From Enterococcus sp. HY326 (GTDB taxonomy: Bacteria; Bacillota; Bacilli; Lactobacillales; Enterococcaceae): DNA of 24,000 nucleotides. Position 1 is the stretch's first letter. Every line of letters begins with the position of its first letter. A program made the translations under genes and the position numbers. This document shows, in pieces, positions 2,267 through 21,372 of this stretch. The notes below the pieces were generated by a model that saw only the letters and a program-made list of their open reading frames with translations, had not been told where the DNA came from and searched no databases. The stretch lies in the NCBI RefSeq assembly GCF_026157065.1, contig NZ_JANLGQ010000006.1:229925-253924 (forward strand), read 5' to 3'.

Positions 2267-2287
2267 TTTGGCAAAGGAGCGGGAAAA

Positions 2288-4053: not shown

Positions 4054-4088
4054 AAAAATAGCAAACAACCATTTGGAGGAAATTATTT

Positions 4089-4931: not shown

Positions 4932-4958
4932 AATAAGGAAATAAAGGAGTAATTGGTT

Positions 4959-5705
4959 ATGGCGAAAGTTTTAACAGCTTTAGAGGTTTTGAAAAAGCAT
5001 AGATGGTTAGATTTAACTCATGAAGTAAATAATTCAATCCCTTATTTTCAAGCTTTTCAGCCACTTGCTGAACGAACCCTATTCACGGTTGAAGGGGACG
5101 GCTTTTTAGCCAAAGAATATAAAATTGTCAGTCAATACGGCACACACATTGATGCACCTGTTCATTTTGCAAGTGGCAAGCGAATCTTGACAGATTTATC
5201 GCTAAAAGAACTTTTTCTACCATTGTATGTGATTCATAAGGAAGCCGAGGTTGCAGAAAATCCTGATTATTCAATTTCGGTTGCCGATATTTTAGAATTT
5301 GAAGCGGCCTACGGAAAAATTCCTGCGGATAGCTTTGTGGCCTTTGCCAGCGGTTGGTCACAGCGTTGGGATAAAGCAGCTGATTTTTATAATTTGGATG
5401 AAACAGGAATTTCCCACACGCCAGGTTGGTCGCTAGCAGCTTTAAAATTCTTACATGAAGAACGGAACATTACAGCAATTGGCCACGAAACTTTAGATAC
5501 CGATGCTGGAGCAGACTATGCTAAAAATAAAGGCTTGGTCGCTGAATTGTATTGGCTCTCACAAAATAAATATCAAGTGGAAGTCTTGAATAATTTAAAA
5601 GAGCTACCAGCAGTTGGCGCTATTATCCAAATCGGTGTACCTAAAATTGCTGAAGCGCCTGGCTTTACCGTACGAGCAGTAGCCATTTTACCTGAATTAG
5701 CTTAA
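4959..5705 (+). CDS. Cyclase-family protein / arylformamidase (kynurenine formamidase)-like hydrolase
   Basis: Start at ATG 4959 (MAKVLTALE), 9 nt after AAGGAG. HxDxPxH metal motif present (GTHIDAPVHF). ~248 aa, typical of the putative-cyclase/formamidase fold. Confidence 0.7.
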   Translation: MAKVLTALEVLKKHRWLDLTHEVNNSIPYFQAFQPLAERTLFTVEGDGFLAKEYKIVSQYGTHIDAPVHFASGKRILTDLSLKELFLPLYVIHKEAEVAENPDYSISVADILEFEAAYGKIPADSFVAFASGWSQRWDKAADFYNLDETGISHTPGWSLAALKFLHEERNITAIGHETLDTDAGADYAKNKGLVAELYWLSQNKYQVEVLNNLKELPAVGAIIQIGVPKIAEAPGFTVRAVAILPELA

Positions 5706-5754
5706 ATAGAACTAGCATAACACAATTGAAAATAAAAATACCGGAGGAATTTCC

Positions 5755-6957
5755 ATGACTTATAAAGAACAATTTGAAACATTTATCGCAGAACGCTTAC
5801 CAGAGTACCAAGCCTTAGCCTTAGATATCCATGATCATCCAGAAGTCAGCAATTATGAATTTTATTCTTCAGACGTTTTGATTGACCGTCTGAAAAAAGA
5901 AGGCTTTACAGTAGAAAAAGATGTTGCCGGTCACCGGACGGGCTTTGATGCCCGCTATCAATCCGGAAAGGCTGGTCCGACGATTGCCTTTTTAGCTGAA
6001 TACGACGCATTGCCAGGCATTGGCCATGCCTGTGGTCACAATTTATTTGGAACCACTTCGATTTTGGCGGCCAGCGCATTGAAACAAATTATCGATGAAA
6101 TTGGCGGTGAAATCCGCGTTTACGGAACACCAGGCGAAGAAGGCGGCGAAAATGGTTCAGCGAAGGGGAGCTTTGTGCGGGAAGGTTTCTTTGAGGATGT
6201 CGATGCGGCAGTGTGCTGCCATCCGGGCCATCGCTATAGCTTGACGAGTCCCGGCTTAGCTAATGACCCGGTGGATATTAAATTTTACGGGCGGGCCTCA
6301 CACGCGGCGGCGGCTCCGGAAAAAGGAATTAATGCTTTAGATGCCGTGATTCAAGTTTATAACAGCATTAATGCTTTGCGGGAGCATTTGCCAAGCGATG
6401 TGCGGATTCACGGTATTATCACCGATGGCGGTGTTGCAGCGAATGTCGTGCCGGAATTTGCCTCAGCTCGTTTTTATCTGCGGGCTTTAAAACGGAACAC
6501 CTTAAATGAAGTTTATCAAAAGGTCGAAAATATTGTGAAGGGAGCTGCCTTGGCCACCGGAACAACCTATGAATTTGGGTTATTCCAAAATTCTGTCGAT
6601 GATATCGTCGTGACACCAGCCTTTGACGCAGTGTTTTTAAAACACCTGCGGGATTTAGGCACTTCTGAGGAGGAAATTGCCACGAAGAAACCGGATGCTT
6701 TAGGTTCATCAGATGTGGGAAATGTCAGCCAAGTGATTCCAACGATTCAACCTTTAGTCTCCATTTCGGATGACTACATTGCCGGTCACAGCATTGAATT
6801 TAAAGCGGCGGCCCGCAGTGAAAAAGGACTAGCCTCCATCGGCATCGGCGCTGAATTATTGGCCCTCACAGCACTGGATTTGATTTTGCAACCAGAGCTG
6901 CTGGCGCAAATTAAAGCACAGCACCAAGCGGCAATTCAAACGGAAGTTTTAGTTTAA
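5755..6957 (+). CDS. M20-family amidohydrolase (N-acyl-amino-acid amidohydrolase / AbgB-like)
   Basis: 400 aa, RBS GGAGGA 6 nt upstream. HACGHNL motif and GTPGEEGGENG block typical of M20D-type amidohydrolases. Last gene before a strong terminator. Confidence 0.75.
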   Translation: MTYKEQFETFIAERLPEYQALALDIHDHPEVSNYEFYSSDVLIDRLKKEGFTVEKDVAGHRTGFDARYQSGKAGPTIAFLAEYDALPGIGHACGHNLFGTTSILAASALKQIIDEIGGEIRVYGTPGEEGGENGSAKGSFVREGFFEDVDAAVCCHPGHRYSLTSPGLANDPVDIKFYGRASHAAAAPEKGINALDAVIQVYNSINALREHLPSDVRIHGIITDGGVAANVVPEFASARFYLRALKRNTLNEVYQKVENIVKGAALATGTTYEFGLFQNSVDDIVVTPAFDAVFLKHLRDLGTSEEEIATKKPDALGSSDVGNVSQVIPTIQPLVSISDDYIAGHSIEFKAAARSEKGLASIGIGAELLALTALDLILQPELLAQIKAQHQAAIQTEVLV

Positions 6958-6965
6958 TAAAATAC

Positions 6966-7014
6966 GACCTCTTTAGGCTAAAGATTCTAGCTTAAAGAGG
7001 TCGCATTTTGTTTT
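6966..7014. terminator. Intrinsic terminator between the convergent met operon and PTS operon
   Basis: GACCTCTTTAg...CTTAAAGAGGTC hairpin (6966-7002) followed by gcATTTTGTTTT. On the minus strand the same stem is followed by gtatttta, so it may serve both convergent operons. Confidence 0.75.
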
Positions 7015-7095: not shown

Positions 7096-7416
7096 TTATT
7101 CCACATCGATTTTGCGGTACAAGTCGATGATTTCCTTAGCCAAGTCAGTAAAAGCAATCGCTGTCATCAAGTGGTCTTGTGAGTGAACAGTTAATAACGT
7201 CACTTCCATGTGATTGCCTTGTGCTTCTTCAGTTAACATATTGGTTTGAGAATGGTGAGCTTGCACTAAAGATTGCTCAGCATCGACGATTTTTTGGTCA
7301 GCTAATTCAAAGTTGCCTTCTTTGGCTGCTTGAATGGCTTCCATGGCATCGCTTTTAGCATTGCCTCCGTACATAATTAAGCCCATGATTGCTTCTAAAT
7401 TTTGTTGATCTTCCAT
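7096..7416 (-). CDS. PTS lactose/cellobiose-family EIIA component
   Basis: Start set at ATG 7416 (MEDQQNLEAI), since the TTG at 7431 sits inside the GGAGGG RBS. ~106 aa three-helix-type IIA with the phosphorylatable His context LLTVHSQDHLM. Confidence 0.9.
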   Translation of the reverse strand: MEDQQNLEAIMGLIMYGGNAKSDAMEAIQAAKEGNFELADQKIVDAEQSLVQAHHSQTNMLTEEAQGNHMEVTLLTVHSQDHLMTAIAFTDLAKEIIDLYRKIDVE

Positions 7417-7437
7417 CGTTGTTCCCTCCAAATTTTG

Positions 7438-7755
7438 TTATTTCATTAAACTTTCAGCTTGGTCTAACACTTTTTCGCCATTCATCATGCCGTAATCAGA
7501 CATGTTGATAACGTCCAAAGGAATGCCCAATGGTGCTAATTTATCAGCGAACTGATTTTTCATAAAGCGAACTTGCGGGCCTAAAAGCAAGACATCAATA
7601 TTTTTGCTTTCGATATTATTGTCCGCTTCAGAAGCAGACACTGCAAAAATATCTGCATCCATGCCGCGTTCATCCGCCGCTTTTTGCATTTTTGTTACCA
7701 GTAAACTTGTGCTCATGCCGGCTGAACAAACCAGCATAATTGTTTTTTTAGCCAT
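7438..7755 (-). CDS. PTS lactose/cellobiose-family EIIB component
   Basis: Start set at ATG 7755 (MAKKTIMLVCSAGMSTSLL) after AAGGAG. The ORF-track N-terminal extension has no support. Active-site Cys in LVCSAGMSTS. Confidence 0.9.
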   Translation of the reverse strand: MAKKTIMLVCSAGMSTSLLVTKMQKAADERGMDADIFAVSASEADNNIESKNIDVLLLGPQVRFMKNQFADKLAPLGIPLDVINMSDYGMMNGEKVLDQAESLMK

Positions 7756-7788
7756 TGTTATCACTCCTTGTATTTTTGATACCTTCTT

Positions 7789-7817
7789 ATCATAATCTAA
7801 TCTAAGCAGAAAATCAA
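7789..7817 (-). promoter_or_regulatory. Candidate internal sigma-A promoter driving EIIB-EIIA
   Basis: Minus strand reads TTGATT (7817-7812), 17 nt, TATGAT (7794-7789). It lies in the only sizeable gap (147 nt) of the operon, ~35 nt upstream of the EIIB start. Confidence 0.45.
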
Positions 7818-7902
7818 AGCCGCTTTTTGAAAAGTTTTTCCAGATAGCTAGGTCAACAATCCAGATAAAAGATTTCAAAGAGGCGGCTAGTTTTTTTAGT
7901 TG

Positions 7903-8982
7903 TTAACGCAGTGTTTCTTTAAAGACCGCTACATCCTTCATGCTCAAAGAACGGATAAAGGCCACCAGCAGTTGAATGGTTTGGCGATAATCTTCTTGGT
8001 GAATCAGTAAGCGGGAAGAATGCATGTACCGGGTGGGCAGCGAGAGGGTCATGGTGACAACCCCCTCCATCGCCTTGTGAATATTACAAGCATCGGTGCC
8101 GCCGACAGTCATAAAGTCATAGCGAACATTTAAATTTTGTTCTTTAATAATTGTTTCCATGCGCTCTAGTAAACCACGATTGGCAATCGTCAAGGAATCT
8201 AACACTGCTAAAATACAGCCATCACCTAATCGCAGCCCGTCTTTATCAAAGGGAGTGTCTTTTGCTGTGGTGACGTCTAAAGCAATCGCAATATCAGGCT
8301 TGATGCTATGGACCGCCGTTCGTGCGCCCCGAATGCCGACTTCTTCTTGGACCGTTGCCGCAAAATAAACATCTGCCGCAATTTCAGATTGCGCTATGTT
8401 ACGTAGCACCTCTAAGCTTGTCCCTAGACAGATTCTGTCGTCCCAGGCTTTGCCCATTAGATATTCGGGGTCATTCATTTGCCGAAATTGTGTATTTGGC
8501 GTAATCATATCACCAACGGCAATTCCCAGTTCGTTAATTTTTGCAGCGCTACTAACCCCCATGTCCAAATAAAAATCCATCGGTGCAAAGACTTTATTTT
8601 TTTCTTCAGCGGGCATTCCGTGGGGTGCCCGACTGCCGATAACGCCGATGTATTTTTGGCCAGTAGCGGTGGTGACTTTCATCTCTTGGGCAGGCATTAC
8701 ATGGCCCCACCAGCCGCCGACAGGTAAAAGATACAAGTAACCCTCAGGCGTAATTTTGCGCACCATAAAGCCGACTTCATCCATATGAGCGGAGAGCATA
8801 ATTTTCGGACCGGTACCTTTTTTGTGCAAAATCAGAGAACCTAGATTATCATAAAAATACTCATCGACTAACGGTGCGCCATAATTTTTGACAACACGGG
8901 AGACTTCCCGCTCACAGCCGCCGATACCATCGGCTTCACTTAAATTTTTTAGGAGCTCAAGGTCAATTGCTTGAATTGTCAT
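7903..8982 (-). CDS. M42-family metallo-aminopeptidase (FrvX/YpdE/PepA-type), metal site intact
   Basis: 359 aa. All five canonical M42 ligand contexts are present: AHMDEVG, AWDDR, TVQEEVG, IALDVT, TRYMHS. RBS GGAGG overlaps the upstream stop. Confidence 0.85.
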   Translation of the reverse strand: MTIQAIDLELLKNLSEADGIGGCEREVSRVVKNYGAPLVDEYFYDNLGSLILHKKGTGPKIMLSAHMDEVGFMVRKITPEGYLYLLPVGGWWGHVMPAQEMKVTTATGQKYIGVIGSRAPHGMPAEEKNKVFAPMDFYLDMGVSSAAKINELGIAVGDMITPNTQFRQMNDPEYLMGKAWDDRICLGTSLEVLRNIAQSEIAADVYFAATVQEEVGIRGARTAVHSIKPDIAIALDVTTAKDTPFDKDGLRLGDGCILAVLDSLTIANRGLLERMETIIKEQNLNVRYDFMTVGGTDACNIHKAMEGVVTMTLSLPTRYMHSSRLLIHQEDYRQTIQLLVAFIRSLSMKDVAVFKETLR

Positions 8983-8993
8983 AGTGAGGCCTC

Positions 8994-10055
8994 CTAACGG
9001 TTTTCTTCTTGATAGGCTACAATTTTTTCAGGAGTTAAGGCTTTTAAGAAAGCGGCTAGAGCAGAGGCAATTGCCCGATAGTCTGTTTGCCGTGCGACTT
9101 GCAAGCCAGCATCCAAATTACGCAGAGCCTGACCGATTAATAAAGTCGGGCAGCCAGTCCGTAATTTATTAATCCAGCCGGCATCAGAGCCAGTTAAGGA
9201 ATAATAATCTTGATAAGCAATTTTTTCTGTATCACACAGCTGCCGCAGCTCATTTAAAAGCAAACGATTTGGTAAAACGGAAGGGTCGTAATAGGTGAGT
9301 AATAAGCCCTCACCTAAAATCCCTTGTTGGTCAGTCGCATCTGTTTGATAATCCCACGCCTGCTGCGTATCCAGCATCACTGCCAAGTCAGGTTGAACTA
9401 AATTGGCGGCGGTTTGGGCGCCACGGGTACCGACTTGTTCCTGTACTGTACAGCCGACATATAAATCAAAAGGCAGAGTCACATCAGTTAAGGAACGCAG
9501 GATGTCGATTGTTTGACTGACGGCCAAGCGCCCATTCCAATTTGCAGCATACCAAGTTTCCTGATTTTCTGAAGTGAAAAAATCAGCCGCTAAAGTAATC
9601 ATATCGCCGACCATGATTTGCTTTGTCGTCGCTTCGGCTTCTGAAATAAAGCCAAAATCCAAGAGGACATCGCCGGTTTTGCCTAAGGCAGTGCCAGCTT
9701 GGTCTTGTCCTAAGATGACACCGGTGAAAGTTTTTTGACTGCGGGTCATTAGTTTAACCTTGGTTCCCAACAAAGCTTTGTCGTTAACTTGCCCTAGCGC
9801 CAAAGCTGTCAAGGTACCATTCCCATTAATTTTTTTCAAAATAAAGCCCAATTCGTCCATGTGGGCGTTGACCATCACTCGTAGCTGACTAGCCCCGCTG
9901 CCTTTTTTCAACGCATAAATGGAGCCCAGATTGTCATAAATAATTTCGTCACAGTAGGGTGTGTACTGTTCCTTTAAAAAATGGGAAATATATTTTTCAT
10001 TGCCCGCAATACCTGGCGTTGTCGCCAGAGCTTGCAGTTGTTCAACTAAGTCCAT
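8994..10055 (-). CDS. M42-family peptidase paralogue with degenerate metal-binding site (probable pseudoenzyme or altered subunit)
   Basis: 353 aa, colinear with the neighbouring M42. AHMDELG and MLDTQQ are retained, but DDR is replaced by NGR (ANWNGR), EE by EQ (TVQEQVG), and the C-terminal His by Asp (RNLDAG versus RYMHSS). Confidence 0.75.
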   Translation of the reverse strand: MDLVEQLQALATTPGIAGNEKYISHFLKEQYTPYCDEIIYDNLGSIYALKKGSGASQLRVMVNAHMDELGFILKKINGNGTLTALALGQVNDKALLGTKVKLMTRSQKTFTGVILGQDQAGTALGKTGDVLLDFGFISEAEATTKQIMVGDMITLAADFFTSENQETWYAANWNGRLAVSQTIDILRSLTDVTLPFDLYVGCTVQEQVGTRGAQTAANLVQPDLAVMLDTQQAWDYQTDATDQQGILGEGLLLTYYDPSVLPNRLLLNELRQLCDTEKIAYQDYYSLTGSDAGWINKLRTGCPTLLIGQALRNLDAGLQVARQTDYRAIASALAAFLKALTPEKIVAYQEENR

Positions 10056-10073
10056 CTTTTATCCTCGATTCTC

Positions 10074-10595
10074 TTAATAGCAATATTCAGCAGTAAAGGC
10101 CGTGGTGTCTTCCTGATTGACTTTCAGCTGGCAGAGTTTCAGCATTGTTTCCATTGATTCCGTCAAGCCAGTGCCGCCTTTTTTCGGCATTTTAACAATG
10201 TCGACTTGGTCTTTGTACAATTCAATCGCTTCGGCACATTCCTGAGACATGGCGGCAATCACCGGTTTGTGGAGCTTATCAGTAATCGTCGCCGCCACTT
10301 TGCCGGCCATCAAGCCGTATTTATCATAATTAAAACAAGGACCGCAAATGACGACATCGGGATTTAATTTTTTAACCATTGCAGTTAATTTCAAGGCATT
10401 GGTTTCAGCATCGGCGGCGAAATAATCATCGCCGCAATACAAGGTTGCCATGACTTCGCCGTTGACCGCCCCTAGATAATTTTCAAACATCTGGACTGAG
10501 CCAATCGCCATATATTTGCCGCCCAAGGGTTGGTCGCCTTTTTCAGCGCCACCTAAACCGGCTTGAATTTGATCGAGTATAAAAATAATTTTCAT
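10074..10595 (-). CDS. Small protein resembling the N-terminal domain of the glycine/sarcosine/betaine reductase protein B (GrdB/PrdB) family; no selenocysteine
   Basis: Start set at ATG 10595 (MKIIFILDQ), 8 nt after AGGAGG; the GTG at 10604 abuts the RBS. Blocks IQAGLGGAEKGD, LYCGDDYF and PDVVICGPCFNYDKYG match my recollection of conserved GrdB N-terminal blocks. 173 aa, no in-frame TGA. Confidence 0.5.
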   Translation of the reverse strand: MKIIFILDQIQAGLGGAEKGDQPLGGKYMAIGSVQMFENYLGAVNGEVMATLYCGDDYFAADAETNALKLTAMVKKLNPDVVICGPCFNYDKYGLMAGKVAATITDKLHKPVIAAMSQECAEAIELYKDQVDIVKMPKKGGTGLTESMETMLKLCQLKVNQEDTTAFTAEYCY

Positions 10596-10607
10596 GTCAG
10601 CCACCTC

Positions 10608-11951
10608 CTATAAGTCTTCGATTGAAATATCGTCAAAGGAAATTTCATCTTCGGCCAATTTTTCCGCTGCCGCATCGGCTTCGTCTTGAAGATATTGTTT
10701 GTCTAATGTTTTGATGAACGGATAATAAATCAGACAGCCTAGCGCCAGCAGAACAAACTGCCATAAAGCGGCCACTAAACTACCGGTACTCAAGTAACCA
10801 GAAAAACCAATCGGAGTGGTCCATGGTAGTGAAACGCCGGTCGTATAAGGAATCAGACCAATTTTTGTAACAAAAGTTGACAGCAGTAGGTTAACTGTCG
10901 GTGTCAAAATAAACGGAATGATGATAATTGGATTTAAGACAACTGGTAAACCGAAGATAATCGGTTCATTGATACCAAAAATTCCTGGGACAATTGATAG
11001 TTTTCCCAGTTCTTTAATTCGCCGGGATTTGCAGAAGAGCATCATCACGATAATTAATGAAAGGGTCGAACCGCCACCGCCGAAATTGGTAAAGAAATTA
11101 GAAAACGGATCGGTAAAGATATTTGGCAAAGTGGTGCCGGCTTGGAAGGCATCTAAGTTTTCCATCGTTAAAATTTTGGTGATTGGGGCAAAAACGGAAT
11201 TGGCTACCGCCGGACCATTAATCCCAAAGAACCAGAAAATAGTACAAGCCAAGCTGTAAATAATTTGCGCCGTCAAAGTATTGCCGGCCCCCCGCAAAGG
11301 TGTTTGCAGGACTTCAAAAATAAAATTGTGGGCGGTTTCAAAGGAAGTCATCCCAAATAAAATATTAACTAAGAAGAAGGTCATCATAACTAACGCACTT
11401 GGAACTAAAGCGGCAAAGGATTTAGTAACTGCTGGCGGCACACCGTCAGGCATTTTAATTGTCCACCCCTTTTTAGTCGCATAGGAATAAATAATTACTG
11501 AAACAAAAGCGACAACTAAACCAACGAAAATCCCATTGGTACCCAGATGGTCAAAGGACAAACCGCTTACCGGATCTGCAACACCTTCAATAAAAATTTT
11601 GTTGGGTGTTAAAATCAAAAAGCCAATCGCTGCCACAGCAGCTGCTTGAATCGGGTCGCTTTTTTTCTCCCGGGCATAGGCATAAGCCGTACCAAGACAG
11701 GAGAAGAAGCCAACGGTATTAAAGACAGAACCGGAGACTCTTGTAATCCAAGATTCCCAACCAGTTCCAAAAATTCCCGCCCAAAATTCAGACCAGCCGG
11801 TGATTGGGAAATTGGCGATTAATAAAAAGATTGATCCTACGATTACCAAAGGGGTTGTGATTAAAAAACCATCACGAATGGCAATCAGCGCTTTGTTCTG
11901 GCCCAGTTTAACGGCAACTGGCATCAAAACATTTTCCAACTTACTAAACAT
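10608..11951 (-). CDS. PTS lactose/cellobiose/chitobiose-family EIIC permease
   Basis: 447 aa polytopic protein. N-terminus LMPVAVKLGQNKALIAIRDGF and the internal GINGP, NEPIIFGLP and PWTTP motifs are typical of CelB/ChbC-type EIIC. Unusual acidic C-terminal tail (DEADAAAEKLAEDEISFDDISIEDL). Confidence 0.9.
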   Translation of the reverse strand: MFSKLENVLMPVAVKLGQNKALIAIRDGFLITTPLVIVGSIFLLIANFPITGWSEFWAGIFGTGWESWITRVSGSVFNTVGFFSCLGTAYAYAREKKSDPIQAAAVAAIGFLILTPNKIFIEGVADPVSGLSFDHLGTNGIFVGLVVAFVSVIIYSYATKKGWTIKMPDGVPPAVTKSFAALVPSALVMMTFFLVNILFGMTSFETAHNFIFEVLQTPLRGAGNTLTAQIIYSLACTIFWFFGINGPAVANSVFAPITKILTMENLDAFQAGTTLPNIFTDPFSNFFTNFGGGGSTLSLIIVMMLFCKSRRIKELGKLSIVPGIFGINEPIIFGLPVVLNPIIIIPFILTPTVNLLLSTFVTKIGLIPYTTGVSLPWTTPIGFSGYLSTGSLVAALWQFVLLALGCLIYYPFIKTLDKQYLQDEADAAAEKLAEDEISFDDISIEDL

Positions 11952-11990
11952 TTTTTCATCCTCATTTCTTTTCTTATTTTATTTAAACGA

Positions 11991-12944
11991 TTAATCGATT
12001 GGTGCCTTAATCCGTTTTTCGTATGCGTCGAGCCATTCTTGTGAAATTGGCTCAATTATTGTTTGCTCGTCTGCTCCCATATTGGCGATGAAAATTTGGC
12101 TGTCTTCACCGTTGGCAGCGACGGAAAAAGTAAATTCAACATTAGTGGCAACGCCCCATTCACCCTTGGGATTCATGGCGACTAACGAAAAGGCACCGGC
12201 TTTGCCATAGCGTTTTTTCAACTTATGATGGAAGCGATAGACCGCTTCGTCACAGGCCTGTTGCGGAGCTAAGCCCTCAGACATTTTGCGGACAATTTCA
12301 TAGGAGAGACAACCCTTCATCAAATCTTCTCCCAAGCCTGTGGCAACGGCACCGCCGACTTCACTGTCCACGTAAAAGCCGCTGCCGGATAAGGGCGAAT
12401 CGCCAACCCGACCAGCTTGCTTCATAAACAAGCCTGAGCTGGAGGTGCCGGCACACATTTTGCCAAATTGATCCAGAGAAACCACGCCGACGGTATCGTG
12501 TCCGTCATAAGGGTCCAAATTATGTTTGGAAATTTCCTCCACCCGTTGTTCCCAGATTTTTTTAGCTCGGGGGGTTAACATGTTGCAGCGCTCAAAGCCC
12601 GCCAACATGGCATACTCAGTCGCTCCTTGCCCAACCCGAAAGCTGTTAAATTTTTCATCGCTCAATTTTCGGGCAACTGAAATCGGATTTTTAACATCGA
12701 CAATACCTGCGACAGCGCCAATTTTAAAGGAGTCGCCATCCATAAAAGCCGCATCCATTTCTAAAATTCCGTGGGCATTTGGCAGGCCCCCGTAGCCGAC
12801 CGATTTGTAATAGGGATAATCTTCGACGGCTTTGATAGCCGTCTCGACAGCATCCCCCGCCGTTCCTCGGTTTGCTAATAATGCGGCGGCTTTGTGCACG
12901 CCGTCATCGGCCATCCGCCATGTTGCTATGGTTCCCCAACTCAT
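11991..12944 (-). CDS. Ntn-hydrolase of the asparaginase-2 family, glycosylasparaginase (aspartylglucosaminidase)-like
   Basis: Start set at ATG 12944 (MSWGTIATW), 7 nt after GGAGGA, which removes the overlap with the upstream gene. Motifs SVGYGGLPN, MDAAFMDG, KNPISVAR, autoprocessing/nucleophile site GHD-TVGVV, GRVGDSP and VATGLGEDL resemble bacterial and human glycosylasparaginases more than E. coli IaaA, as I remember those sequences. Confidence 0.7.
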   Translation of the reverse strand: MSWGTIATWRMADDGVHKAAALLANRGTAGDAVETAIKAVEDYPYYKSVGYGGLPNAHGILEMDAAFMDGDSFKIGAVAGIVDVKNPISVARKLSDEKFNSFRVGQGATEYAMLAGFERCNMLTPRAKKIWEQRVEEISKHNLDPYDGHDTVGVVSLDQFGKMCAGTSSSGLFMKQAGRVGDSPLSGSGFYVDSEVGGAVATGLGEDLMKGCLSYEIVRKMSEGLAPQQACDEAVYRFHHKLKKRYGKAGAFSLVAMNPKGEWGVATNVEFTFSVAANGEDSQIFIANMGADEQTIIEPISQEWLDAYEKRIKAPID

Positions 12945-12960
12945 ATTGATTCCTCCAATT

Positions 12961-14274
12961 TTATAAATCAGCAACTGCTAAAGCGCAGATTGCCTTGAGA
13001 TAAATTTCCATATTTAAAAATAAATCTTTTTTCGCCATATACTCATTTTTATTGTGGGCAATGCCTTTTTGTCCGGGAAATGATGGACCAAAGGCGACAA
13101 TATTCGGCATTGAGCGGGCATAAGTGGCCCCTGTCGTTGTCACCGGCGTGCCATCTAAACCGCTAGTTTCCTCATAGACTCGTGATAAAATCTGAATGCC
13201 GGCAGCTTCTTTAGGAATCACATGACTTTTGATACGGCGAGTGACGTTTAGCTGACTGGCTTCTGGAATCACTTGTAAAAGTCCAGCTGTGACATCGTCT
13301 TCAGAAAAAGTTACTGGATAACGAACGGCAAAATCTAAGACTAGCTGCGTCCCATCTTTTTGCAGCTGATAAGGCGTAATCATCAATTTACCAGAATCGC
13401 CATCTTCAAAGGCAATGTTCAAACCTTCGCCGGCGTGTTTTTGATGGAAACTTGTGTAGAGCCAAGAAAAATATGTTGCAACTTCTGTTGGCAAAGCCGC
13501 TTCACCTAATAATTTTTCCGCCAATAGTGTAATGGCATTTAAGCCTAAGTCAGGGGCGTTTGAAGGGGCTCGTTTACCAACTGCAAAAAAAGTTTTTCCT
13601 TGATAGGTGACAGTTAGTTCATCGGGGACGTGGTCGCGAGCTTGGTCGCCGTTAAAAGCACCAAGGTCAGAAAGAGCGCTTTCAGAAAAAGCAGTCCTCA
13701 ATTGATAATTTACAACTCCTCGTTCTCCGTAGACAACTGAATATTTACCATCCGGCGTGAAACCAAATATCGGCGGCTGTTCCTCCGCTAAATACAGCGG
13801 TAAATCAGCCGAACCACTTTCTTCGTCCGTTCCGAAAATAATGCGAATCTGCCGTTTAGGCTGAAAGCCGGCGTCCTTCAAAAGTTTCAAAGCAAACAGA
13901 CAGGCGAGGATTGGACCTTTATTATCTAAAATGCCCCGTCCATAAAAATTTTCGGTATCTTCGCTTAAATCAAAGGGCGGATAATCCCAACCGCTGCCGG
14001 CTGCCACGACATCCAAATGCCCAACGACTCCGATATATTCACTGCTTTCGCCAAAAGCGGCATAGCCAACGGCATCGCCGATGGTCTTTCTTTTGAATCC
14101 GTAGCTCTCTGCCAATTTTAGCGTTTGTTCTAAAGCTGCCCGTGGCCCTGGACCAAAGGGCTCGCCGGTAGCGGTTGGTCCTTTAATGCTGGGAATCTGC
14201 AGGACACTTTTTAAATCTGTTAAAAATTCTGCAGCATGCTCTTGGATCAGCTGCTGATAATTCAGTTCGTTCAT
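12961..14274 (-). CDS. M20-family dipeptidase (PepV / Sapep type)
   Basis: 437 aa. Metal and catalytic motifs GHLDVV, GRGILDNKGP and GTDEESGS are intact. RBS AAGGAGA overlaps the GntR stop. Confidence 0.85.
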   Translation of the reverse strand: MNELNYQQLIQEHAAEFLTDLKSVLQIPSIKGPTATGEPFGPGPRAALEQTLKLAESYGFKRKTIGDAVGYAAFGESSEYIGVVGHLDVVAAGSGWDYPPFDLSEDTENFYGRGILDNKGPILACLFALKLLKDAGFQPKRQIRIIFGTDEESGSADLPLYLAEEQPPIFGFTPDGKYSVVYGERGVVNYQLRTAFSESALSDLGAFNGDQARDHVPDELTVTYQGKTFFAVGKRAPSNAPDLGLNAITLLAEKLLGEAALPTEVATYFSWLYTSFHQKHAGEGLNIAFEDGDSGKLMITPYQLQKDGTQLVLDFAVRYPVTFSEDDVTAGLLQVIPEASQLNVTRRIKSHVIPKEAAGIQILSRVYEETSGLDGTPVTTTGATYARSMPNIVAFGPSFPGQKGIAHNKNEYMAKKDLFLNMEIYLKAICALAVADL

Positions 14275-14287
14275 TGTGAGGTCTCCT

Positions 14288-15007
14288 TTAATGATTACGA
14301 ATTAAGGTGTTCTTGAAGGTATATTTGTCAGCACGGTAATAGGAAGTATCGTAAATTATCGGAATTGCCGTGGCAGAATAGGCAATCGAATTAACTTTTA
14401 ATACGGGATCATTTTTTTTGATTTGCAAAAGCTTCGCTAACTCTTGGTCAGCTAGCATGGCCTCCACCTCTTGATGGGAATAGGCAATCTCGACAGTTTT
14501 TTCAATTAGTTCAAAAAGCGAATTGGCTAACTGTTCCTTGGTAACCTCTTTGACAGTGCTGCTCTTCACGTATAAATGTTCAATCGTCATCGGCTCTTCA
14601 TCAAAAGAGCGTAGCCGCTCGATATAAACCAAATCACCTTGTTTGGTCAATTGCATAGCATTTAAAATAGTTTGCGGCGCTTGCGGCGTTTGGTCATAAA
14701 CTAAAACCTTTGTATTAGAAGATTTACCAAAGGCCTTCGCCGACTCGGTAAAGCCGACTAGACCCGATTTGCCGCTTTGATATTTTTCGCTCGGCTGCAT
14801 CACGTAGGTGCCTTTGCCCTTCATTTTGAAAAGCAAATTTTGCTGAATCAAAAAATCAATCGCTTTGCGCACCGTCAGCCGGCTGACAGCAAATTCAGTG
14901 GCCAAATCGTATTCTGAAGGCAGCTTTTGCGAGCTGACGTAAACACCTGTCTTGATTTTTTCTTCAATTTCTTTTGCAACGAGTTGATAACTCGGTAATT
15001 TTTCCAT
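14288..15007 (-). CDS. GntR-family transcriptional regulator, HutC subfamily (winged HTH plus UTRA effector domain)
   Basis: 239 aa. N-terminal LPSEYDLATEFAVSRLTVRKAIDFL is the GntR wHTH signature. Length and C-terminal pattern fit the UTRA-type HutC/NagR group. Confidence 0.85.
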   Translation of the reverse strand: MEKLPSYQLVAKEIEEKIKTGVYVSSQKLPSEYDLATEFAVSRLTVRKAIDFLIQQNLLFKMKGKGTYVMQPSEKYQSGKSGLVGFTESAKAFGKSSNTKVLVYDQTPQAPQTILNAMQLTKQGDLVYIERLRSFDEEPMTIEHLYVKSSTVKEVTKEQLANSLFELIEKTVEIAYSHQEVEAMLADQELAKLLQIKKNDPVLKVNSIAYSATAIPIIYDTSYYRADKYTFKNTLIRNH

Positions 15008-15022
15008 TCTAATCCATCCTTT

Positions 15023-15868
15023 TTACCAGTCAAAAAAACTAGTATTGGTAGCAACGCCAGAAGCAATGCTGATAAACGCTTGTTGATCTGTTTGCGTAAT
15101 AATTGTTTTGACGGCGGCTAATTCTCTTTTGGAAACTACGACAATCAGCATCTTGCGGGACTCGTGGTCAAAGGCCCCCTCGACATCATTGACAATCGTC
15201 ATGCCTCGGGAAATCTTTTCTTGAATATTCGGTACCAGCTGCGGCGCTTTTTGCGTAACAACTAACAGCTGAACCTTCTGCTGTTTAGCGTTGACATAAT
15301 CGACCACCCTGCCGCTGATAAAAACCGAAAAAGCGCTATAAAAGGCATATTGCCAACCAAATAGAAAGCCTGCCGCAAATTCAATCAAGACATTAAAAAC
15401 AATAAAAACCGAACCAATGCTTTGTTTGGTGTATTTGCGGGCGATGATGCCGATAATATCTAAACCACCAGTTGAAAAATCACTGTTTAACGTAATGCCC
15501 ACCGAAATTCCGTGAAGCACACCACCAAATAATGCGCAGATAAAAGGATCCGTGGTAATAACAAGCGGCGGAATAAGTTTCATCACAAATGAGGTGATGA
15601 CAACCGCAAAAATTGTATAGCAGGTAAATTCTTTGTCAATTTTGAACCAGGCAATAATCAAAAGAGGTAAGTTAAAAATTAAAACTAAAAAAGGAATCGA
15701 CAGCTGAATATGTGCAAACTGATTCAAACTAACCGACAACAGCTGCGATAAGCCCGTGATACCGTTTGCATAAATGTTGCCAGACAACCAAAAAAAGTTT
15801 AAGGCAATCGATGATAGCACCGCATACAATAAAGCAATTCCCATTTTTGAAAAATTAGCTTTTGGCAT
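15023..15868 (-). CDS. YitT-family membrane protein (DUF2179-type C-terminal domain)
   Basis: 281 aa, about 5-6 TM helices, then a soluble ~80-aa C-terminal domain (VQLLVVTQKAPQLVPNIQEKISRGMTIVNDVEGAF...). RBS GGGAGA. It ends 15 nt before the GntR start, so it is probably the first gene of the operon. Confidence 0.7.
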   Translation of the reverse strand: MPKANFSKMGIALLYAVLSSIALNFFWLSGNIYANGITGLSQLLSVSLNQFAHIQLSIPFLVLIFNLPLLIIAWFKIDKEFTCYTIFAVVITSFVMKLIPPLVITTDPFICALFGGVLHGISVGITLNSDFSTGGLDIIGIIARKYTKQSIGSVFIVFNVLIEFAAGFLFGWQYAFYSAFSVFISGRVVDYVNAKQQKVQLLVVTQKAPQLVPNIQEKISRGMTIVNDVEGAFDHESRKMLIVVVSKRELAAVKTIITQTDQQAFISIASGVATNTSFFDW

Positions 15869-15900
15869 AGCACTGATCTCCCATTAATTTTTTCAAGTTT

Positions 15901-15929
15901 ATTATAACTAGTATATACTGTTTTGTATA
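15901..15929 (-). promoter_or_regulatory. Sigma-A promoter of the yitT-gntR-peptidase-PTS operon
   Basis: Minus strand reads TATACA (15929-15924), 17 nt, TATAAT (15906-15901), 33 nt upstream of the YitT-family start codon. Confidence 0.55.
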
Positions 15930-15938
15930 TACTGTTTT
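15911..15938. promoter_or_regulatory. Tandem 14-bp direct repeat, each copy with the palindrome GTATATAC: candidate GntR/HutC operators
   Basis: gtatatactgtttt occurs twice back to back (15911-15924 and 15925-15938). GTATATAC is self-complementary and fits the HutC-subfamily operator pattern GT-M-TA-K-AC as I recall it. One copy lies in the promoter spacer and the other overlaps the -35. Confidence 0.6.
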
Positions 15939-16110
15939 TGAAATTTATTTTTGATTGAAGGGAAAATAATTTTTTTGTGTGAGAAATAAAATGGATTGGT
16001 TTTTGCAGTGTAGTAGAGGTACAACTGGTAATTCACAAATGAAAACGTAGAATTGTTTTGCAGAATCGATGATGAAACTATTAAAAACGAAATGACATGA
16101 CTGGTTTGTC

Positions 16111-16161
16111 CAAATAGAAAGCCCCAGATTTAGCACTGCAGAAAGCAGTTCTAAATCTGGG
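16111..16161 (-). terminator. Long hairpin, probable terminator of the RpiR-family gene
   Basis: CCCAGATTTAGCACTGC-agaaa-GCAGTTCTAAATCTGGG (16123-16161): 17-bp stem with one mismatch. On the minus strand it is followed by CTTTCTATTT. It lies 45 nt downstream of the rpiR-type stop. Confidence 0.45.
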
Positions 16162-16206
16162 AGATAATTAAAATCCTATTTTGATTGAGTGGATGATATG
16201 AAATGG

Positions 16207-16926
16207 CTAGCTACCAATTATTTTCTTGCAGAGCATCTCAATAATAAACATGACTGGCAGTTGAGTGGTCATATCAATTTCACTGGATTTGCTGTAGGGA
16301 ATATAGTAAGCCAGCACATAATCAGAAAGTTTGGCTAAAGTTGAGTTGTCGTAGTTGGTAATGCTAATAATTTGGTTTTGACTCTGTTTGAGATTTTGTA
16401 AAATTCGGATGGTATTATCAATTTCACCAGATACTGAGAGAACAATCAGCACAGAATTATCAAAAAGAGAATCTTGACTGTGGAAATACGGATCATCAAT
16501 AACTAAGTTTGTTTTACCAGTATTGGCAAAATAACTAGCAGCATAGCGACAGATTCCAGCTGAGGCACCAAAGCCCATCCAGACAATGCCACTGGATTTT
16601 TTGATAACAGCCGCAATCTCACTAAGCTTTTCTTGAAACTCTAGTGTTATATACCTTTCCAAATAACTGATGTCCGTTGAAGGGAAATCTGCTGCTACGG
16701 AGTTTTCATTTGCAAGATAATCTTTGTAGTGCAGCTTGAATTCTGCATAGCCCTTGAGTCCAAGGGAGCGGCAAAATCTTAAAATCGTAGTGGTGGAAAC
16801 GTGGGTTTTATTGGCAAGTTCCTGAATCGACATGTTTAAAATATCGTTGGGATGATCAATTATATAATTGTAAATAATGATTTCCAATTCGCTTAAGTGC
16901 TTGATTTTGTCATAATTAAACATCAT
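16207..16926 (-). CDS. RpiR/MurR-family transcriptional regulator (HTH_6 plus SIS domain)
   Basis: Start probably ATG 16926 (MMFNYDKIKHL), 9 nt after GGAG; the ORF-track start at 16941 overlaps that RBS. N-terminal HTH (SIQELANKTHVSTTTILRFCRSLGLKGYAEFK) and a C-terminal SIS-like phosphosugar-binding part. Confidence 0.85.
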   Translation of the reverse strand: MMFNYDKIKHLSELEIIIYNYIIDHPNDILNMSIQELANKTHVSTTTILRFCRSLGLKGYAEFKLHYKDYLANENSVAADFPSTDISYLERYITLEFQEKLSEIAAVIKKSSGIVWMGFGASAGICRYAASYFANTGKTNLVIDDPYFHSQDSLFDNSVLIVLSVSGEIDNTIRILQNLKQSQNQIISITNYDNSTLAKLSDYVLAYYIPYSKSSEIDMTTQLPVMFIIEMLCKKIIGS

Positions 16927-17063
16927 TTTGACTCGCTCCATTTATTTTTTTTCAGGTAATAAATTACAAACGCCTTGAAATTGGTTTCACAACCTTTGGC
17001 TATGATATAAAATATACCTCAGAAAGGAAGCGATAACAAATGAAAAATTGAATTTTAACTTTT

Positions 17064-21200
<4,137 letters not shown>

Positions 21201-21214
21201 TAATAAAAATGTTA

Positions 21215-21260
21215 GCAGTTAGAAAACGGGCTGAACCGCCATTTTCTAACTGCTTTTTGG
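21215..21260 (+). terminator. Intrinsic terminator of the EIIC-GH1-gtfA operon
   Basis: GCAGTTAGAAAA (21215-21226), 15-nt loop, TTTTCTAACTGC (21242-21253), followed by TTTTTGG. Confidence 0.8.
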
Positions 21261-21344
21261 TGTGGAAGAAAAAACAATTTCTATTGTGGTTTTGATTAGA
21301 GAAGAATTTCAAATGGAGAAACAAGTCAACAGGAAATTTAACGT

Positions 21345-21372
21345 TTTTGAAGTAAGTCACCCTTGCTATAAT
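21345..21372 (+). promoter_or_regulatory. Candidate sigma-A promoter with extended -10 upstream of the sigma factor operon
   Basis: TGcTATAAT (21364-21372) with a weak -35 TTTTGA (21345-21350), 16-nt spacer. Confidence 0.4.

Follow-up and report, generated by a model that had tools for sequence, protein, structure and literature searches.

A probable ega-type PTS operon for GlcNAc-asparagine use in Enterococcus sp. HY326, carrying a transporter of another clade and an added M42 gene pair

GlcNAc-Asn is the stub left once endoglycosidases and proteases have digested (host) N-glycoproteins. The closest described system for its use is the ega locus of E. faecalis (OG1RF_10933-10939), characterised in 2023 (Combret et al., Res Microbiol 2024); ega comprises genes for a GntR regulator, a dipeptidase, the glycosylasparaginase EgaG, EIIB and EIIC, a split GrdB-like pseudogene, and two promoters. 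Papers citing Combret et al. 2024 name it a GlcNAc-L-Asn PTS dependent on the EIIA CelA1. L. casei AsnA2 has been proven biochemically to cleave GlcNAc-Asn, and Becerra 2020 already drew asnA2-pepV-alfR2 beside PTS genes; in L. sakei, LSA1689, LSA1690, LSA1692 and LSA1693 are jointly upregulated on ribose versus glucose. The original prediction for the DNA studied here described the L. casei alf-2 operon accurately; its statement that no PTS for glyco-amino acids had been characterised is outdated by ega (2023/24) and the Becerra 2020 drawing.

We analysed a 24-kb stretch of the Enterococcus sp. HY326 genome (the window) and read its PTS operon, with a probability of roughly 80%, as an ega-type operon for GlcNAc-Asn use by the mechanism proposed below. 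The HY326 operon has the same parts as ega, and gene order after YitT is alike save for EIIB, which lies between EgaG and EIIC in ega but after M42b in HY326. The GntR/HutC protein, a predicted repressor, corresponds to EgaR and AlfR2, the M20 protein to the “dipeptidase” of ega and to PepV of alf-2, and the GrdB-like protein to the ega “putative oxidoreductase”; orthology to ega is proposed from architecture, family membership and congeneric loci rather than from direct protein alignment. The two systems differ in that HY326 has an EIIC of another clade and an added M42 gene pair, encodes its own EIIB and EIIA whereas the ega PTS reportedly relies on CelA1, and has a single promoter as against the two described for ega. 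The HY326 locus is a mosaic of an enterococcal regulator/PepV/amidase core and a co-inherited EIIC/GrdB-like/M42a/M42b module. The pathway itself is not new, and the HY326 copy is a variant with another transporter clade and an unexplained M42 pair; of the predicted PTS pathway for GlcNAc-Asn, uptake and release by the amidase hold up, and the claim of novelty falls with the publication of ega in 2023/24.

ORF calling recovered the ten predicted genes, all on the minus strand and in one direction from 15868 to 7096 (Table 1); every refined gene begins with ATG behind a Shine-Dalgarno site, and the lengths match NCBI calls in sister assemblies. From YitT to EIIA the gaps measure 15, 13, 16, 39, 12, 18, 11, 147 and 21 nt; the predicted gaps of 39 and 147 nt stand, and the predicted 3-nt gap came from a GTG start of the GrdB-like gene that NCBI does not use. 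Every family call made by eye was upheld in Pfam and NCBIfam, and the motifs quoted with them (GHLDVV, DNKG, TDEESG, SVGYGGLPN, KNPISVAR, GHDTVG and GRVGDSP) are found in the translations. The operon contains no GH1 or GH4 glycosidase, as predicted; a GH1 sits 2.5 kb away on the upstream side, as part of a divergent RpiR-EIIC-GH1-GH13 block (15968-21361) that is missing from two sister genomes in which the operon itself is 94.8% identical, and this block is therefore placed outside the locus. The hairpin beyond EIIA, presumably acting on the minus strand too, is probably the operon terminator.

Table 1. Features of the HY326 operon, with positions in the window
Feature	Position	Strand	Evidence
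Promoter and two tandem operator half-palindromes	15901..15932	-	promoter scan, 8-mer count
YitT-family membrane protein	15023..15868	-	PF02588, PF10035
GntR/HutC-type regulator	14288..15007	-	Pfam GntR + UTRA, NF041547
PepV/Sapep M20 dipeptidase	12961..14274	-	TIGR01887
Ntn-hydrolase glycosylasparaginase	11991..12944	-	PDB match, active-site residues
Lac/Cel/Chb-family PTS EIIC	10608..11951	-	TIGR00410, tree
GrdB-N-domain-like protein without selenocysteine, 173 aa	10074..10595	-	NF041545
M42a, degenerate M42 paralogue	8994..10055	-	Pfam M42, 9.8e-55
M42b, canonical M42 (TET-type) aminopeptidase	7903..8982	-	Pfam M42, 1.7e-92
147-nt gap, weak promoter-like match, no operator	7756..7902	-	promoter and operator scans
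PTS EIIB, Lac/Cel family, 105 aa	7438..7755	-	PF02302, 2.4e-22; NCBI call also 105 aa
PTS EIIA, Lac/Cel family, 106 aa	7096..7416	-	PF02255, 3.2e-36; NCBI call also 106 aa
Hairpin, 16-bp stem, between convergent EIIA and M20-amidohydrolase genes	6965..7003	.	terminator scan

In the mechanism that we propose, the GntR/HutC repressor would, when no substrate is present, sit on two tandem tA-GTATATAC-Ta operators that reach over the −35 element and into the spacer of the operon's only promoter; conservation shows the operators, and binding of the repressor to them is presumed. As the E. faecalis system and nagAB linkage suggest, the Lac-family EIIC with the operon's EIIB and EIIA would import the glyco-amino acid and phosphorylate its GlcNAc, presumably at the 6-position. 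The glycosylasparaginase, an enzyme class assigned from sequence, would cut the β-aspartyl-glucosylamine bond of a putatively phosphorylated substrate to yield L-Asp and 1-amino-GlcNAc(-6-P), which would decay to GlcNAc-6-P and ammonia; NagA and NagB, encoded elsewhere, would feed the sugar to glycolysis. M42b/M42a and PepV would remove the residues on either side of the glycosylated Asn of short glycopeptides, leaving the amidase a substrate with free α-amino and α-carboxyl groups. PTS uptake of GlcNAc-Asn and sugar release by the amidase are well supported; glycopeptide trimming is plausible and the likeliest role of M42b/M42a and PepV. In favour of the GlcNAc-Asn reading we count the equivalog matches, the AGA-clade amidase, the ega system, conservation over 80 loci, nagAB, alternative front ends, the presence of one PTS locus type per genome and the L. 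sakei co-expression.

Conservation of the neighbourhood, one of the checks originally proposed, shows the core to be widespread: among 80 related loci, 58 have GntR with M20, 53 an EIIC of the superclade described below and 49 that EIIC with GrdB-like, and the linkage is kept over dozens of genera. A Crassaminicella cluster joins nagA-nagB to EIIC, GrdB-like, M20, M42, M42 and Ntn, which supports GlcNAc-6-P as the product, as had been predicted. In other genomes (loci L010 and L016) the GntR-M20-Ntn core is joined to an apparent ROK kinase, permease and fucosidase (by-eye calls), which fits the predicted substitution of a PTS for permease plus kinase. Of the genomes scanned, none had both an M42-less and an M42-containing PTS locus, the sole double-hit genome carrying an M42-type and an alf-2-like locus; one PTS locus type per genome suggests that either PTS type can fill the same role in place of the other.

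The EIIC scores 399 bits against TIGR00410 (cutoff 236) and 330 bits against ChbC 3QNQ. Phylogenetic placement, also originally proposed, groups it with M42-linked EIICs in a clade within a GlcNAc-Asn-type superclade. At the position of ChbC His250, the HY326 EIIC and the entire superclade have Asn; transport or phosphorylation chemistry may therefore be non-standard. The GrdB-like protein exceeds the cutoff of NF041545 (GrdB_like_no_Se; 239.7 vs. 175 bits) and lies next to an EIIC in all 49 of its occurrences among the 80 loci and in every distant context sampled; its AF2 model (pLDDT 97) has no informative structural neighbour, and its sequence is 100% identical to the protein recorded for Enterococcus sp. 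HY326. M42b, with 1VHE as its closest structure (286 bits), keeps H66, D181, E213, E214, D236 and H321, as does every orthologue, and is on this evidence predicted to be a competent aminopeptidase. Three of the five canonical metal ligands are gone from M42a (bridging Asp to Asn, second-metal Glu to Gln, second-metal His to Asp); equivalent losses occur in all seven orthologues from variant loci, a separate alignment to 3KL9 concurs, and in Crassaminicella and C. disporicum other substitutions have made the orthologues degenerate. With these ligands lost, M42a is unlikely to work as a canonical di-metal aminopeptidase, and is probably a non-catalytic partner; the predicted four peptidase-type genes are thus overstated, the M42b and M20 motifs being intact and M42a degenerate.

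The same core chemistry could serve another natural substrate of the M42-linked PTS. This PTS might be restricted to GlcNAc-Asn glycopeptides and use free GlcNAc-Asn poorly, or might take a different conjugate, of a sugar with an amino acid or a peptide, that the M42 pair processes; the amidase would be an add-on acquired in Enterococcus. We consider this unlikely, although it draws on several observations. The M42-linked EIICs form their own clade, which travels with GrdB-like and a strictly co-inherited M42 pair over Bacilli, Clostridia and Erysipelotrichia; the HY326 EIIC shares only ~50% identity with its counterparts in enterococcal loci that lack M42, EIICs of a different clade, and its substrate range may differ from theirs; and Erysipelotrichaceae and C. 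disporicum have the module with no amidase (Ntn) within 16.5 kb, so that it has no obligatory tie to GlcNAc-Asn. The EIIC identity, the His250-to-Asn change and the amidase-less modules may tell against the GlcNAc-Asn reading. However, the module stands beside Ntn and PepV in Enterococcus, Vagococcus, Lacticaseibacillus baoqingensis and Crassaminicella, with the same operator in the first three; Ntn and M20 also occur in the sister lineage (Tepidanaerobacter, Schnuerera), there with no M42; the Asn signature is common to all clades; and genomes without a local amidase could encode one elsewhere.

The amidase, starting at ATG 12944, 16 nt past the M20 stop and with a GGAGG site, has Flavobacterium glycosylasparaginase as its best PDB match (189 bits, E 1.4e-54) vs. 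~121 bits to hASRGL1-type/isoaspartyl peptidases, which puts it on the glycosylasparaginase side of the proposed placement check. The HDT autoprocessing site, the Thr nucleophile and the equivalents of R180/D183, T203/G204 and W11 are conserved; no catalytic or Asp-binding residue has been lost, the sugar-stacking Trp is kept, and Enterococcus and Vagococcus proteins named by NCBI with EC 3.5.1.26 activity are 74-79% identical. As judged from these features, the Ntn hydrolase is an N4-(β-N-acetylglucosaminyl)-L-asparaginase of the AGA clade. Its sequence shows no sign of having adapted to phosphorylated substrates; within a single genome, the PTS-linked paralogue is 97.5% identical to the kinase-linked one, which may count against the GlcNAc-Asn reading. 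The M20 dipeptidase (TIGR01887, 406 bits vs. cutoff 208) has its metal and catalytic motifs GHLDVV, LDNKG, TDEESG, TPDGK and IAHN in translation and adjoins Ntn in 66 of the 80 loci; a clostridial 374-aa form belongs to the same family at 37% identity. The normal growth of an L. casei pepV mutant on the free glyco-amino acid may also count against the GlcNAc-Asn reading and its trimming step.

It is very improbable that the locus instead salvages peptidoglycan or isoaspartyl peptides, with Ntn a β-aspartyl peptidase whose substrates would be damaged peptides or fragments of D-iso-Asn/Asp cross-bridges, the peptidases finishing the work and the PTS importing a muropeptide-type sugar-peptide. 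The Asparaginase_2 family does also hold isoaspartyl peptidases, the operon has several peptidase-type genes, and nagAB linkage fits GlcNAc-containing muropeptides equally; however, besides the PDB scores and the Trp, the β-aspartyl-peptidase equivalog gives the amidase only 109.6 bits vs. a cutoff of 567, the locus has no MurNAc etherase or muramidase, and GlcNAc-Asn is a substrate of the related enzymes in E. faecalis and L. casei. Least probable of all is an ordinary cellobiose/chitobiose PTS operon lying by chance beside unrelated peptidase genes: EIIC, EIIB and EIIA are of the Lac/Cel family with “cellobiose” in their best NCBIfam names, but the EIIC falls under the cutoffs of the NCBIfam cellobiose, lactose and chitobiose equivalogs, its superclade stands apart from ordinary Cel-type EIICs (28-38% identity), no phospho-β-glucosidase is present in the operon, and the linkage is conserved with one operator in dozens of genera.

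The regulator has HTH and UTRA domains (Pfam) and scores 332.7 bits against NF041547 (GntR_LSA1692; cutoff 275), which like NF041545 is an NCBIfam equivalog made for this gene neighbourhood. HutC-subfamily operators follow the pattern GT-N-TA-N-AC, with which the consensus across loci, tA-GTATATAC-Ta, agrees. The promoter scan gave a main promoter with −35 TATACA (15929-15924) and −10 TATAAT (15906-15901), a 10/12 match; GTATATAC cores lie on the −35 element (15925-15932) and inside the spacer (15911-15918) and nowhere else in the window (0.6 expected), and the EMSA target originally proposed, 15901..15938, contains this operator. An internal promoter had been predicted in the 147-nt gap; its candidate (TTGATT-17-TATGAT, 7817..7789) is a 9/12 match in a scan whose yield does not better that of shuffled sequence (21 found vs. 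17.4 expected), the gap contains no GTATATAC, and the internal promoter is not established. The gap and the trailing EIIB-EIIA are present in sister assemblies and missing from the other seven M42-variant loci scanned. Among the 80 loci, 61 carry GTATATAC ahead of YitT/GntR and of Ntn. The HY326 operon is two ancestral transcription units merged into one. YitT (5 TM plus DUF2179; PF02588 at 6.7e-53, and PF10035), the first gene of the operon, follows the operator and directly precedes GntR in 17 of the 80 loci, and is divergent from the module in Erysipelotrichaceae.

Our ORF scan recovered the ten co-oriented minus-strand genes between positions 15868 and 7096; their lengths agree with NCBI gene calls in two sister assemblies, and every family that the original prediction had named by eye was confirmed by Pfam and NCBIfam. 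The gaps between the genes are, in order, 15, 13, 16, 39, 12, 18, 11, 147 and 21 nt. The operon also contains no glycosidase, as predicted: the GH1 and GH13 genes upstream are part of a divergent RpiR-controlled block. We consider, with a probability of about 0.8, that the ten genes form a PTS operon for GlcNAc-Asn catabolism of the type described at the enterococcal glycosylasparaginase (ega) locus: the GntR protein would repress transcription at GTATATAC operators; the PTS would take up GlcNAc-Asn with phosphorylation; the amidase would release Asp, GlcNAc(-6-P) and ammonia; and NagA and NagB would act downstream of the amidase product.

Genes and other features of the operon, in window coordinates
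Feature	Position	Strand	Basis
Promoter, TATACA-17-TATAAT	15929..15901	-	promoter scan
YitT (membrane protein)	15023-15868	-	ORF scan, start refined by Shine-Dalgarno
GntR (regulator)	14288-15007	-	ORF scan, start refined by Shine-Dalgarno
M20 (PepV/Sapep dipeptidase)	12961-14274	-	ORF scan, start refined by Shine-Dalgarno
Ntn (amidase, glycosylasparaginase)	11991-12944	-	ORF scan, start refined by Shine-Dalgarno
EIIC	10608-11951	-	ORF scan, start refined by Shine-Dalgarno
EIIC Asn245 (ChbC His250 position)	about 11217-11219		
GrdB-like	10074-10595	-	ORF scan, start refined by Shine-Dalgarno
M42a	8994-10055	-	ORF scan, start refined by Shine-Dalgarno
M42b	7903-8982	-	ORF scan, start refined by Shine-Dalgarno
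EIIB	7438-7755	-	ORF scan, start refined by Shine-Dalgarno
EIIA	7096-7416	-	ORF scan, start refined by Shine-Dalgarno
Hairpin, 16-bp stem, closing the operon	6965-7003		terminator scan

The amidase scores better with glycosylasparaginases than with isoaspartyl peptidases: a PDB search gave 189 bits (E 1.4e-54) for Flavobacterium glycosylasparaginase structures vs. about 121 bits for human ASRGL1-type isoaspartyl peptidases, no PDB isoaspartyl enzyme exceeding about 122 bits, and lower scores for E. coli EcAIII and Taspase; the NCBIfam beta-aspartyl-peptidase equivalog NF007589 gave 109.6 bits, far short of its cutoff of 567; and the proteins most similar to it, from Enterococcus and Vagococcus (74-79% identity), carry the NCBI name N(4)-(beta-N-acetylglucosaminyl)-L-asparaginase. 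Alignment to the Flavobacterium enzyme showed that the His-Asp-Thr autoprocessing site and the Thr nucleophile are kept, and that the equivalents of W11, S50, D66, H150, D151, T152, R180, D183, T203 and G204 are all conserved; Phe13 is replaced by Met and Thr170 by Ser. From the structural literature we take R180 and D183 to bind the alpha-carboxyl and alpha-amino groups of the substrate, T203-G204 to form the oxyanion hole and W11 to stack on the sugar. The scores, the conserved residues and the named homologues together favor the AGA over the isoaspartyl clade, a placement that the original prediction had put forward for checking. Identity as an isoaspartyl peptidase or plant-type asparaginase (IaaA, EcAIII) is rejected on the equivalog and PDB scores.

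A system of this kind is already on record for a congener. Two papers that cite Combret et al. (Res Microbiol 175:104169, 2024) describe the ega locus of E. faecalis (OG1RF_10933-10939) as two units, each with its own promoter: OG1RF_10933 (GntR regulator) and 10934 (dipeptidase); and 10935 (EgaG), 10936 (EIIB), 10937 (EIIC) and 10938/10939, the latter a split pseudogene, in OG1RF, of a GrdB-type "putative oxidoreductase". In the citing literature the transporter is called a GlcNAc-L-Asn PTS that depends on CelA1, a cellobiose-family EIIA from the cel locus; the title of Combret et al. states that substrate use during infection depends on the ega locus. Judged by gene order and families, the window operon appears to match ega in its GntR regulator, PepV-type dipeptidase, glycosylasparaginase, Lac/Cel EIIB and EIIC, and GrdB-like protein, the shared genes standing in the same order and in the same genus. 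The two differ as follows: the window adds M42a and M42b, an EIIA of its own and YitT as first gene; its EIIC and GrdB-like protein belong to another clade, with about 50% and 40% identity, respectively, to those of M42-less enterococcal loci; its EIIB stands at the operon end, whereas that of ega follows the amidase; and it forms one fused operon with no second promoter upstream of the amidase, whereas ega has two units. E. faecalis EgaG was not among the best 120 matches to either the window amidase or the E. caccae enzyme, nor did it occur in any of the 80 loci that our genome scan retained.

Two further systems share parts of the operon. The alf-2 operon of L. casei/paracasei BL23 (alfHC, asdA, alfR2, pepV, asnA2, sugK) encodes an AsnA2 that cleaves GlcNAc-Asn; mutation of pepV causes no phenotype when the free glyco-amino acid is supplied, and action of PepV on glycopeptides was proposed by the authors (Becerra et al., mBio 2020, PMC6960285). 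According to the Fig. 7 legend of that paper, L. gasseri, L. johnsonii, L. sakei and L. curvatus have PTS genes adjoining asnA2-pepV-alfR2. The window shares with alf-2 the catabolic core of GntR regulator, PepV and glycosylasparaginase; alf-2 alone has an MFS permease needing 6'-fucose, the fucosidase AlfC, the ROK kinase SugK and AsdA, and lacks the PTS, GrdB-like and M42 genes of the window, in which none of alfH, alfC, sugK and asdA was found. In Latilactobacillus sakei, asnA2 of the LSA1689-LSA1693 cluster is induced in meat fermentation, and LSA1689, 1690, 1692 and 1693 go up together on ribose. This cluster has the M20 peptidase, cellobiose-type EIIC, GntR regulator (the namesake of NF041547) and asnA2 in common with the window, but its order differs (Ntn, GntR, GrdB-like, EIIC, M20), it has neither the M42 pair nor EIIB and EIIA in cis, and its EIIC is of the Lactobacillaceae clade. 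One scanned locus (L046) shows the L. sakei-type arrangement with a GrdB-like gene.

NCBI-curated equivalog models also exist for two of the operon genes. In view of ega (published for the congener in 2023/24), of the asnA2-pepV-alfR2 genes drawn beside PTS genes and of these models, the original statement that no PTS for glyco-amino acids had been characterized is out of date; the functional interpretation was essentially right, and what falls away is its novelty. As the system is already characterized, the main value of the present analysis is comparative, and its lasting contributions are a defined variant carrying the M42 module with its degenerate paralogue, an operator motif common to the regulon, a signature substitution in EIIC, and the connection of two orphan protein families (GrdB-like and YitT) with the system. 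By this pathway, lactic acid bacteria of the gut and of foods can use the GlcNAc-Asn stubs of host and dietary N-glycoproteins as nutrients.

We scanned species-representative genomes with the window amidase and mapped the ten window proteins onto the resulting 80 loci. M20 lies next to Ntn in 66 of them and GntR occurs with M20 in 58; a related EIIC (at least 45% identity) is present in 53, EIIC together with GrdB-like in 49 (GrdB-like never alone), EIIB in 27 and the M42 pair in 7. The published order GntR, M20, Ntn, EIIB, EIIC, GrdB-like is exact in more than 20 Enterococcus and Vagococcus loci. In two loci (L010 and L016), the core of GntR, PepV/M20 and Ntn is followed, alf-2 style, by genes resembling a ROK kinase, a permease and a GH29 fucosidase, calls made by eye from N-terminal motifs. 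The same core is thus found with a PTS or, on these by-eye calls, with permease plus kinase, which makes the front ends interchangeable and agrees with the predicted replacement of permease and kinase by a PTS. Regulator, PepV and amidase constitute a conserved cassette that has been combined with three or more uptake front ends. The cluster of Crassaminicella profunda (nagA, nagB, EIIA, EIIB, EIIC, GrdB-like, M20, M42, M42, EIIA, Ntn, EIIB) includes nagA-nagB, which gives direct genomic support for GlcNAc-6-P as the product.

The genome of Enterococcus sp. AZ128 has two glycosylasparaginase genes: one (L008) in a PTS/M42 locus, the other (L016) beside kinase-type genes, its amidase gene preceding the ROK kinase-, permease- and GH29 fucosidase-like genes called by eye. 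Tandem GTATATAC operators lie upstream of both. The two amidases, one per context, are 97.5% identical, as if a recent duplication had supplied two routes of uptake. Active-site columns are identical between PTS-linked and kinase-linked amidases; on this ground and the near-identity of the AZ128 paralogues, a phosphate-specific adaptation of the amidase was rejected.

The window GntR protein scores 332.7 bits against the equivalog NF041547 (GntR_LSA1692; cutoff 275) and thus belongs with the GntR/HutC repressors of LSA1692/EgaR/AlfR2 type. The sequence ACAGTATATAC overlaps the operon promoter in two copies spaced 14 bp apart; its core, GTATATAC, is a perfect palindrome and has the HutC-type GT-N-TA-N-AC form. 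Within the 24-kb window the core occurs at 15911 and 15925 only (0.6 occurrences expected), and the same 8-mer is found within 6 kb upstream of Ntn in 61 of the 80 related loci, almost always at two places: 35-175 nt upstream of YitT/GntR and 42-102 nt upstream of Ntn. The consensus over the related loci is tA-GTATATAC-Ta, a single operator motif that marks the regulon across Lactobacillales. The ega locus reportedly consists of egaRP and egaGBCD1D2 units (egaR-egaP and egaG-B-C-D) with a 16-bp palindromic EgaR site. The palindromic promoter operator of ega corresponds to the architecture of more than 20 congeneric loci, and the two-promoter layout of the related loci agrees with the published ega organization. 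Congeners keep both operator sites, whereas in the window the 16-nt M20-Ntn gap holds neither a second operator nor a promoter. As the second site is absent and the amidase ATG lies 16 nt past the M20 stop with a GGAGG site in between, the two units have been fused into one operon.

The internal promoter that had been predicted in the 147-nt gap did not hold up: the candidate matches at 9 of 12 positions, comes from a scan that performs no better than on shuffled sequence, and is accompanied by neither an operator nor an inverted repeat within the gap. This weak match may nevertheless drive EIIB and EIIA. A perfect match to a degenerate cre 15-mer (ATGCAAACGGTATCA) lies at 15757-15771 on the minus strand, ~100 nt inside the yitT coding sequence, and is suggestive, at most, of a CcpA roadblock site.

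The transporter differs from the amidase in its pattern of identity among related loci. The window EIIC is 73-92% identical to the EIICs of seven two-M42 loci (E. canis, E. songbeiensis, E. gallinarum, Enterococcus sp. AZ128, an Enterococcus MAG, Vagococcus fluvialis and Lacticaseibacillus baoqingensis) and 48-51% identical to those of M42-less enterococcal loci, which form a different clade; for the amidase, however, identity is 74-79% to the M42 and the M42-less types of Enterococcus and Vagococcus alike. In a neighbor-joining tree, all GrdB-linked EIICs form one superclade, apart from ordinary Lac-family EIICs (28-38% identity) and from the second EIIC of the window itself, and all M42-linked EIICs, including those of Crassaminicella, Clostridium disporicum and Erysipelotrichaceae, form a single clade within our sample. 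This single clade and the identity pattern argue that EIIC, GrdB-like, M42a and M42b are a co-inherited module, here grafted onto the enterococcal core. The residue equivalent to ChbC His250 (3QNQ) is Asn in all ~62 superclade EIICs, with Glu334 kept, whereas unrelated Lac-family EIICs in the same loci have His at this position, except for one distant outlier with Gln; Asn at the His250 position is therefore a diagnostic substitution of the superclade. In the ChbC structure, His250 reportedly lies beside the acceptor hydroxyl, at a site of importance to the transporter. The operon ends with its own EIIB and EIIA, a tail absent from the other seven variant loci. The EIIC-EIIB-GrdB-like-M42-M42 module also occurs in Erysipelotrichaceae (L086, L087, L090) and C. 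disporicum (L088), in none of which a glycosylasparaginase was found within the 16.5 kb shown; at amidase-less module loci an RDD-family membrane protein is often present and GntR is often replaced by a PRD/Mga-type regulator, and in C. disporicum fumarase-like and aspartase-like genes follow the module.

The GrdB-like protein, whose gene lies 12 nt from EIIC, scores 239.7 bits against the separate family NF041545 (cutoff 175) and accompanies the superclade EIIC in every context sampled. Its sequence is 100% identical to that of the Enterococcus sp. HY326 protein, in keeping with an origin of the window from HY326 or a very close relative. It has 173 aa and matches positions 1-165 only of the GrdB profile, which rules out the selenoprotein B of glycine, sarcosine and betaine reductases (~430 aa, with a selenocysteine-containing C-terminal half). 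Its conserved motifs are DQxQAGxGGxE, LYCGD, CGPxFNY, AAMSxE and MPKKGGxGL, and its predicted structure (pLDDT 97.2) has no informative neighbor in the PDB. Given that the gene is a pseudogene in OG1RF, the protein is probably dispensable for use of the free glyco-amino acid.

The five metal ligands of M42 (TET) di-metal aminopeptidases (His, bridging Asp, Glu, Asp, His) and their catalytic Glu are all present in M42b (H66, D181, E213/E214, D236, H321); its closest structure is 1VHE, and its best NCBIfam matches are E. coli-type aminopeptidase models, below their cutoffs. In M42a, the bridging Asp is replaced by Asn, the second-metal Glu by Gln and the second-metal His by Asp, losses of a type seen in all seven variant-locus orthologues and in agreement with a separate alignment to 3KL9. 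These losses make it unlikely, on sequence grounds, that M42a acts as a canonical di-zinc aminopeptidase; on the simplest reading, it would join a hetero-oligomeric TET particle as a partner without catalytic activity. The distant loci carry orthologues of both genes: the first copy is degenerate through other substitutions in Crassaminicella and C. disporicum, and intact in Erysipelotrichaceae.

Glycosylasparaginase needs free alpha groups on Asn. PepV, moreover, is not required for the free compound, and the M42 pair is tied strictly to an EIIC clade of its own. It is plausible, at somewhat short of even odds, that M42b/M42a and PepV trim glycopeptides ahead of the amidase. Our fuller proposal is tentative and rather more doubtful: EIIC, GrdB-like, M42a and M42b may be an ancient, horizontally mobile PTS module for glycopeptides (GlcNAc-Asn plus residues on its flanks, or a different sugar-peptide conjugate), in which the active and the degenerate M42 protein would form a hetero-oligomeric TET particle and trim the phosphorylated glycopeptide after import, and the GrdB-like protein would be an obligatory cytoplasmic accessory of the Asn-bearing EIIC superclade. 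In E. coli, the M42 peptidase genes frvX, sgcX and ypdE are embedded in PTS operons; to our knowledge, no role has been found for these peptidases, and our literature search on M42 proteins with a PTS returned nothing on function. The E. coli operons differ from that of the window in having Fru/Gat PTS types and in lacking the amidase, the GrdB-like gene and a paired degenerate paralogue, and we found no evidence of a substrate shared between them. If true, the module proposal would be the first functional explanation of recurring M42 peptidases in PTS operons, and the strictly co-inherited active and degenerate pair offers a tractable entry to their role.

The main rival holds that the M42-linked module has another primary substrate, a reading prompted by the absence of a local amidase beside the module in Erysipelotrichaceae and C. 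disporicum; we regard it as unlikely. Salvage of isoaspartyl or peptidoglycan material and a plain cellobiose PTS are both rejected as very improbable; among the cellobiose/chitobiose models compared, the window EIIC passes the subfamily model TIGR00410 only and stays below the equivalog cutoffs of TIGR00359 (399 vs. 434.45), NF007157 (239 vs. 503) and the chitobiose model NF007634 (197 vs. 760).

The surroundings of the operon are partly strain-specific. An RpiR-EIIC-GH1-GH13 sugar block (15968-21361), immediately upstream of the operon promoter, and a cyclase-family gene (4936-5729) are both strain-specific insertions: they are missing from the sister assemblies GCA_054871765.1 and GCA_054871815.1, whose identity to the window in other parts, the operon included, is 94.8%. 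On the plus strand (2201-6957), a Met-type ABC transporter (NIL-domain ATPase, permease and NlpA lipoprotein) precedes a cyclase-family gene and a gene for an M20 amidohydrolase that contains a dimerization domain; all of them converge on the operon terminator and have no obvious relation to the operon.

In the window, and likewise in 17 of the 80 loci (among them L001-L003, L007, L009, L019, L020, L024, L027, L028 and L031-L035), the GTATATAC operator is followed first by the gene for YitT, a YitT/DUF2179 membrane protein. The protein may be connected with the pathway as a transporter or exporter; a search for functional literature on YitT/DUF2179 found nothing. The system thereby ties in two orphan families, GrdB-like NF041545 and YitT/DUF2179, and defines roles for them that are open to testing. 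In four loci (L028, L031, L033 and L034), YitT-GntR-M20-Ntn stands with no PTS or kinase nearby, and in Erysipelotrichaceae (L086/L087, 2116-2973) YitT is divergent from the EIIC-GrdB-like-M42 module.
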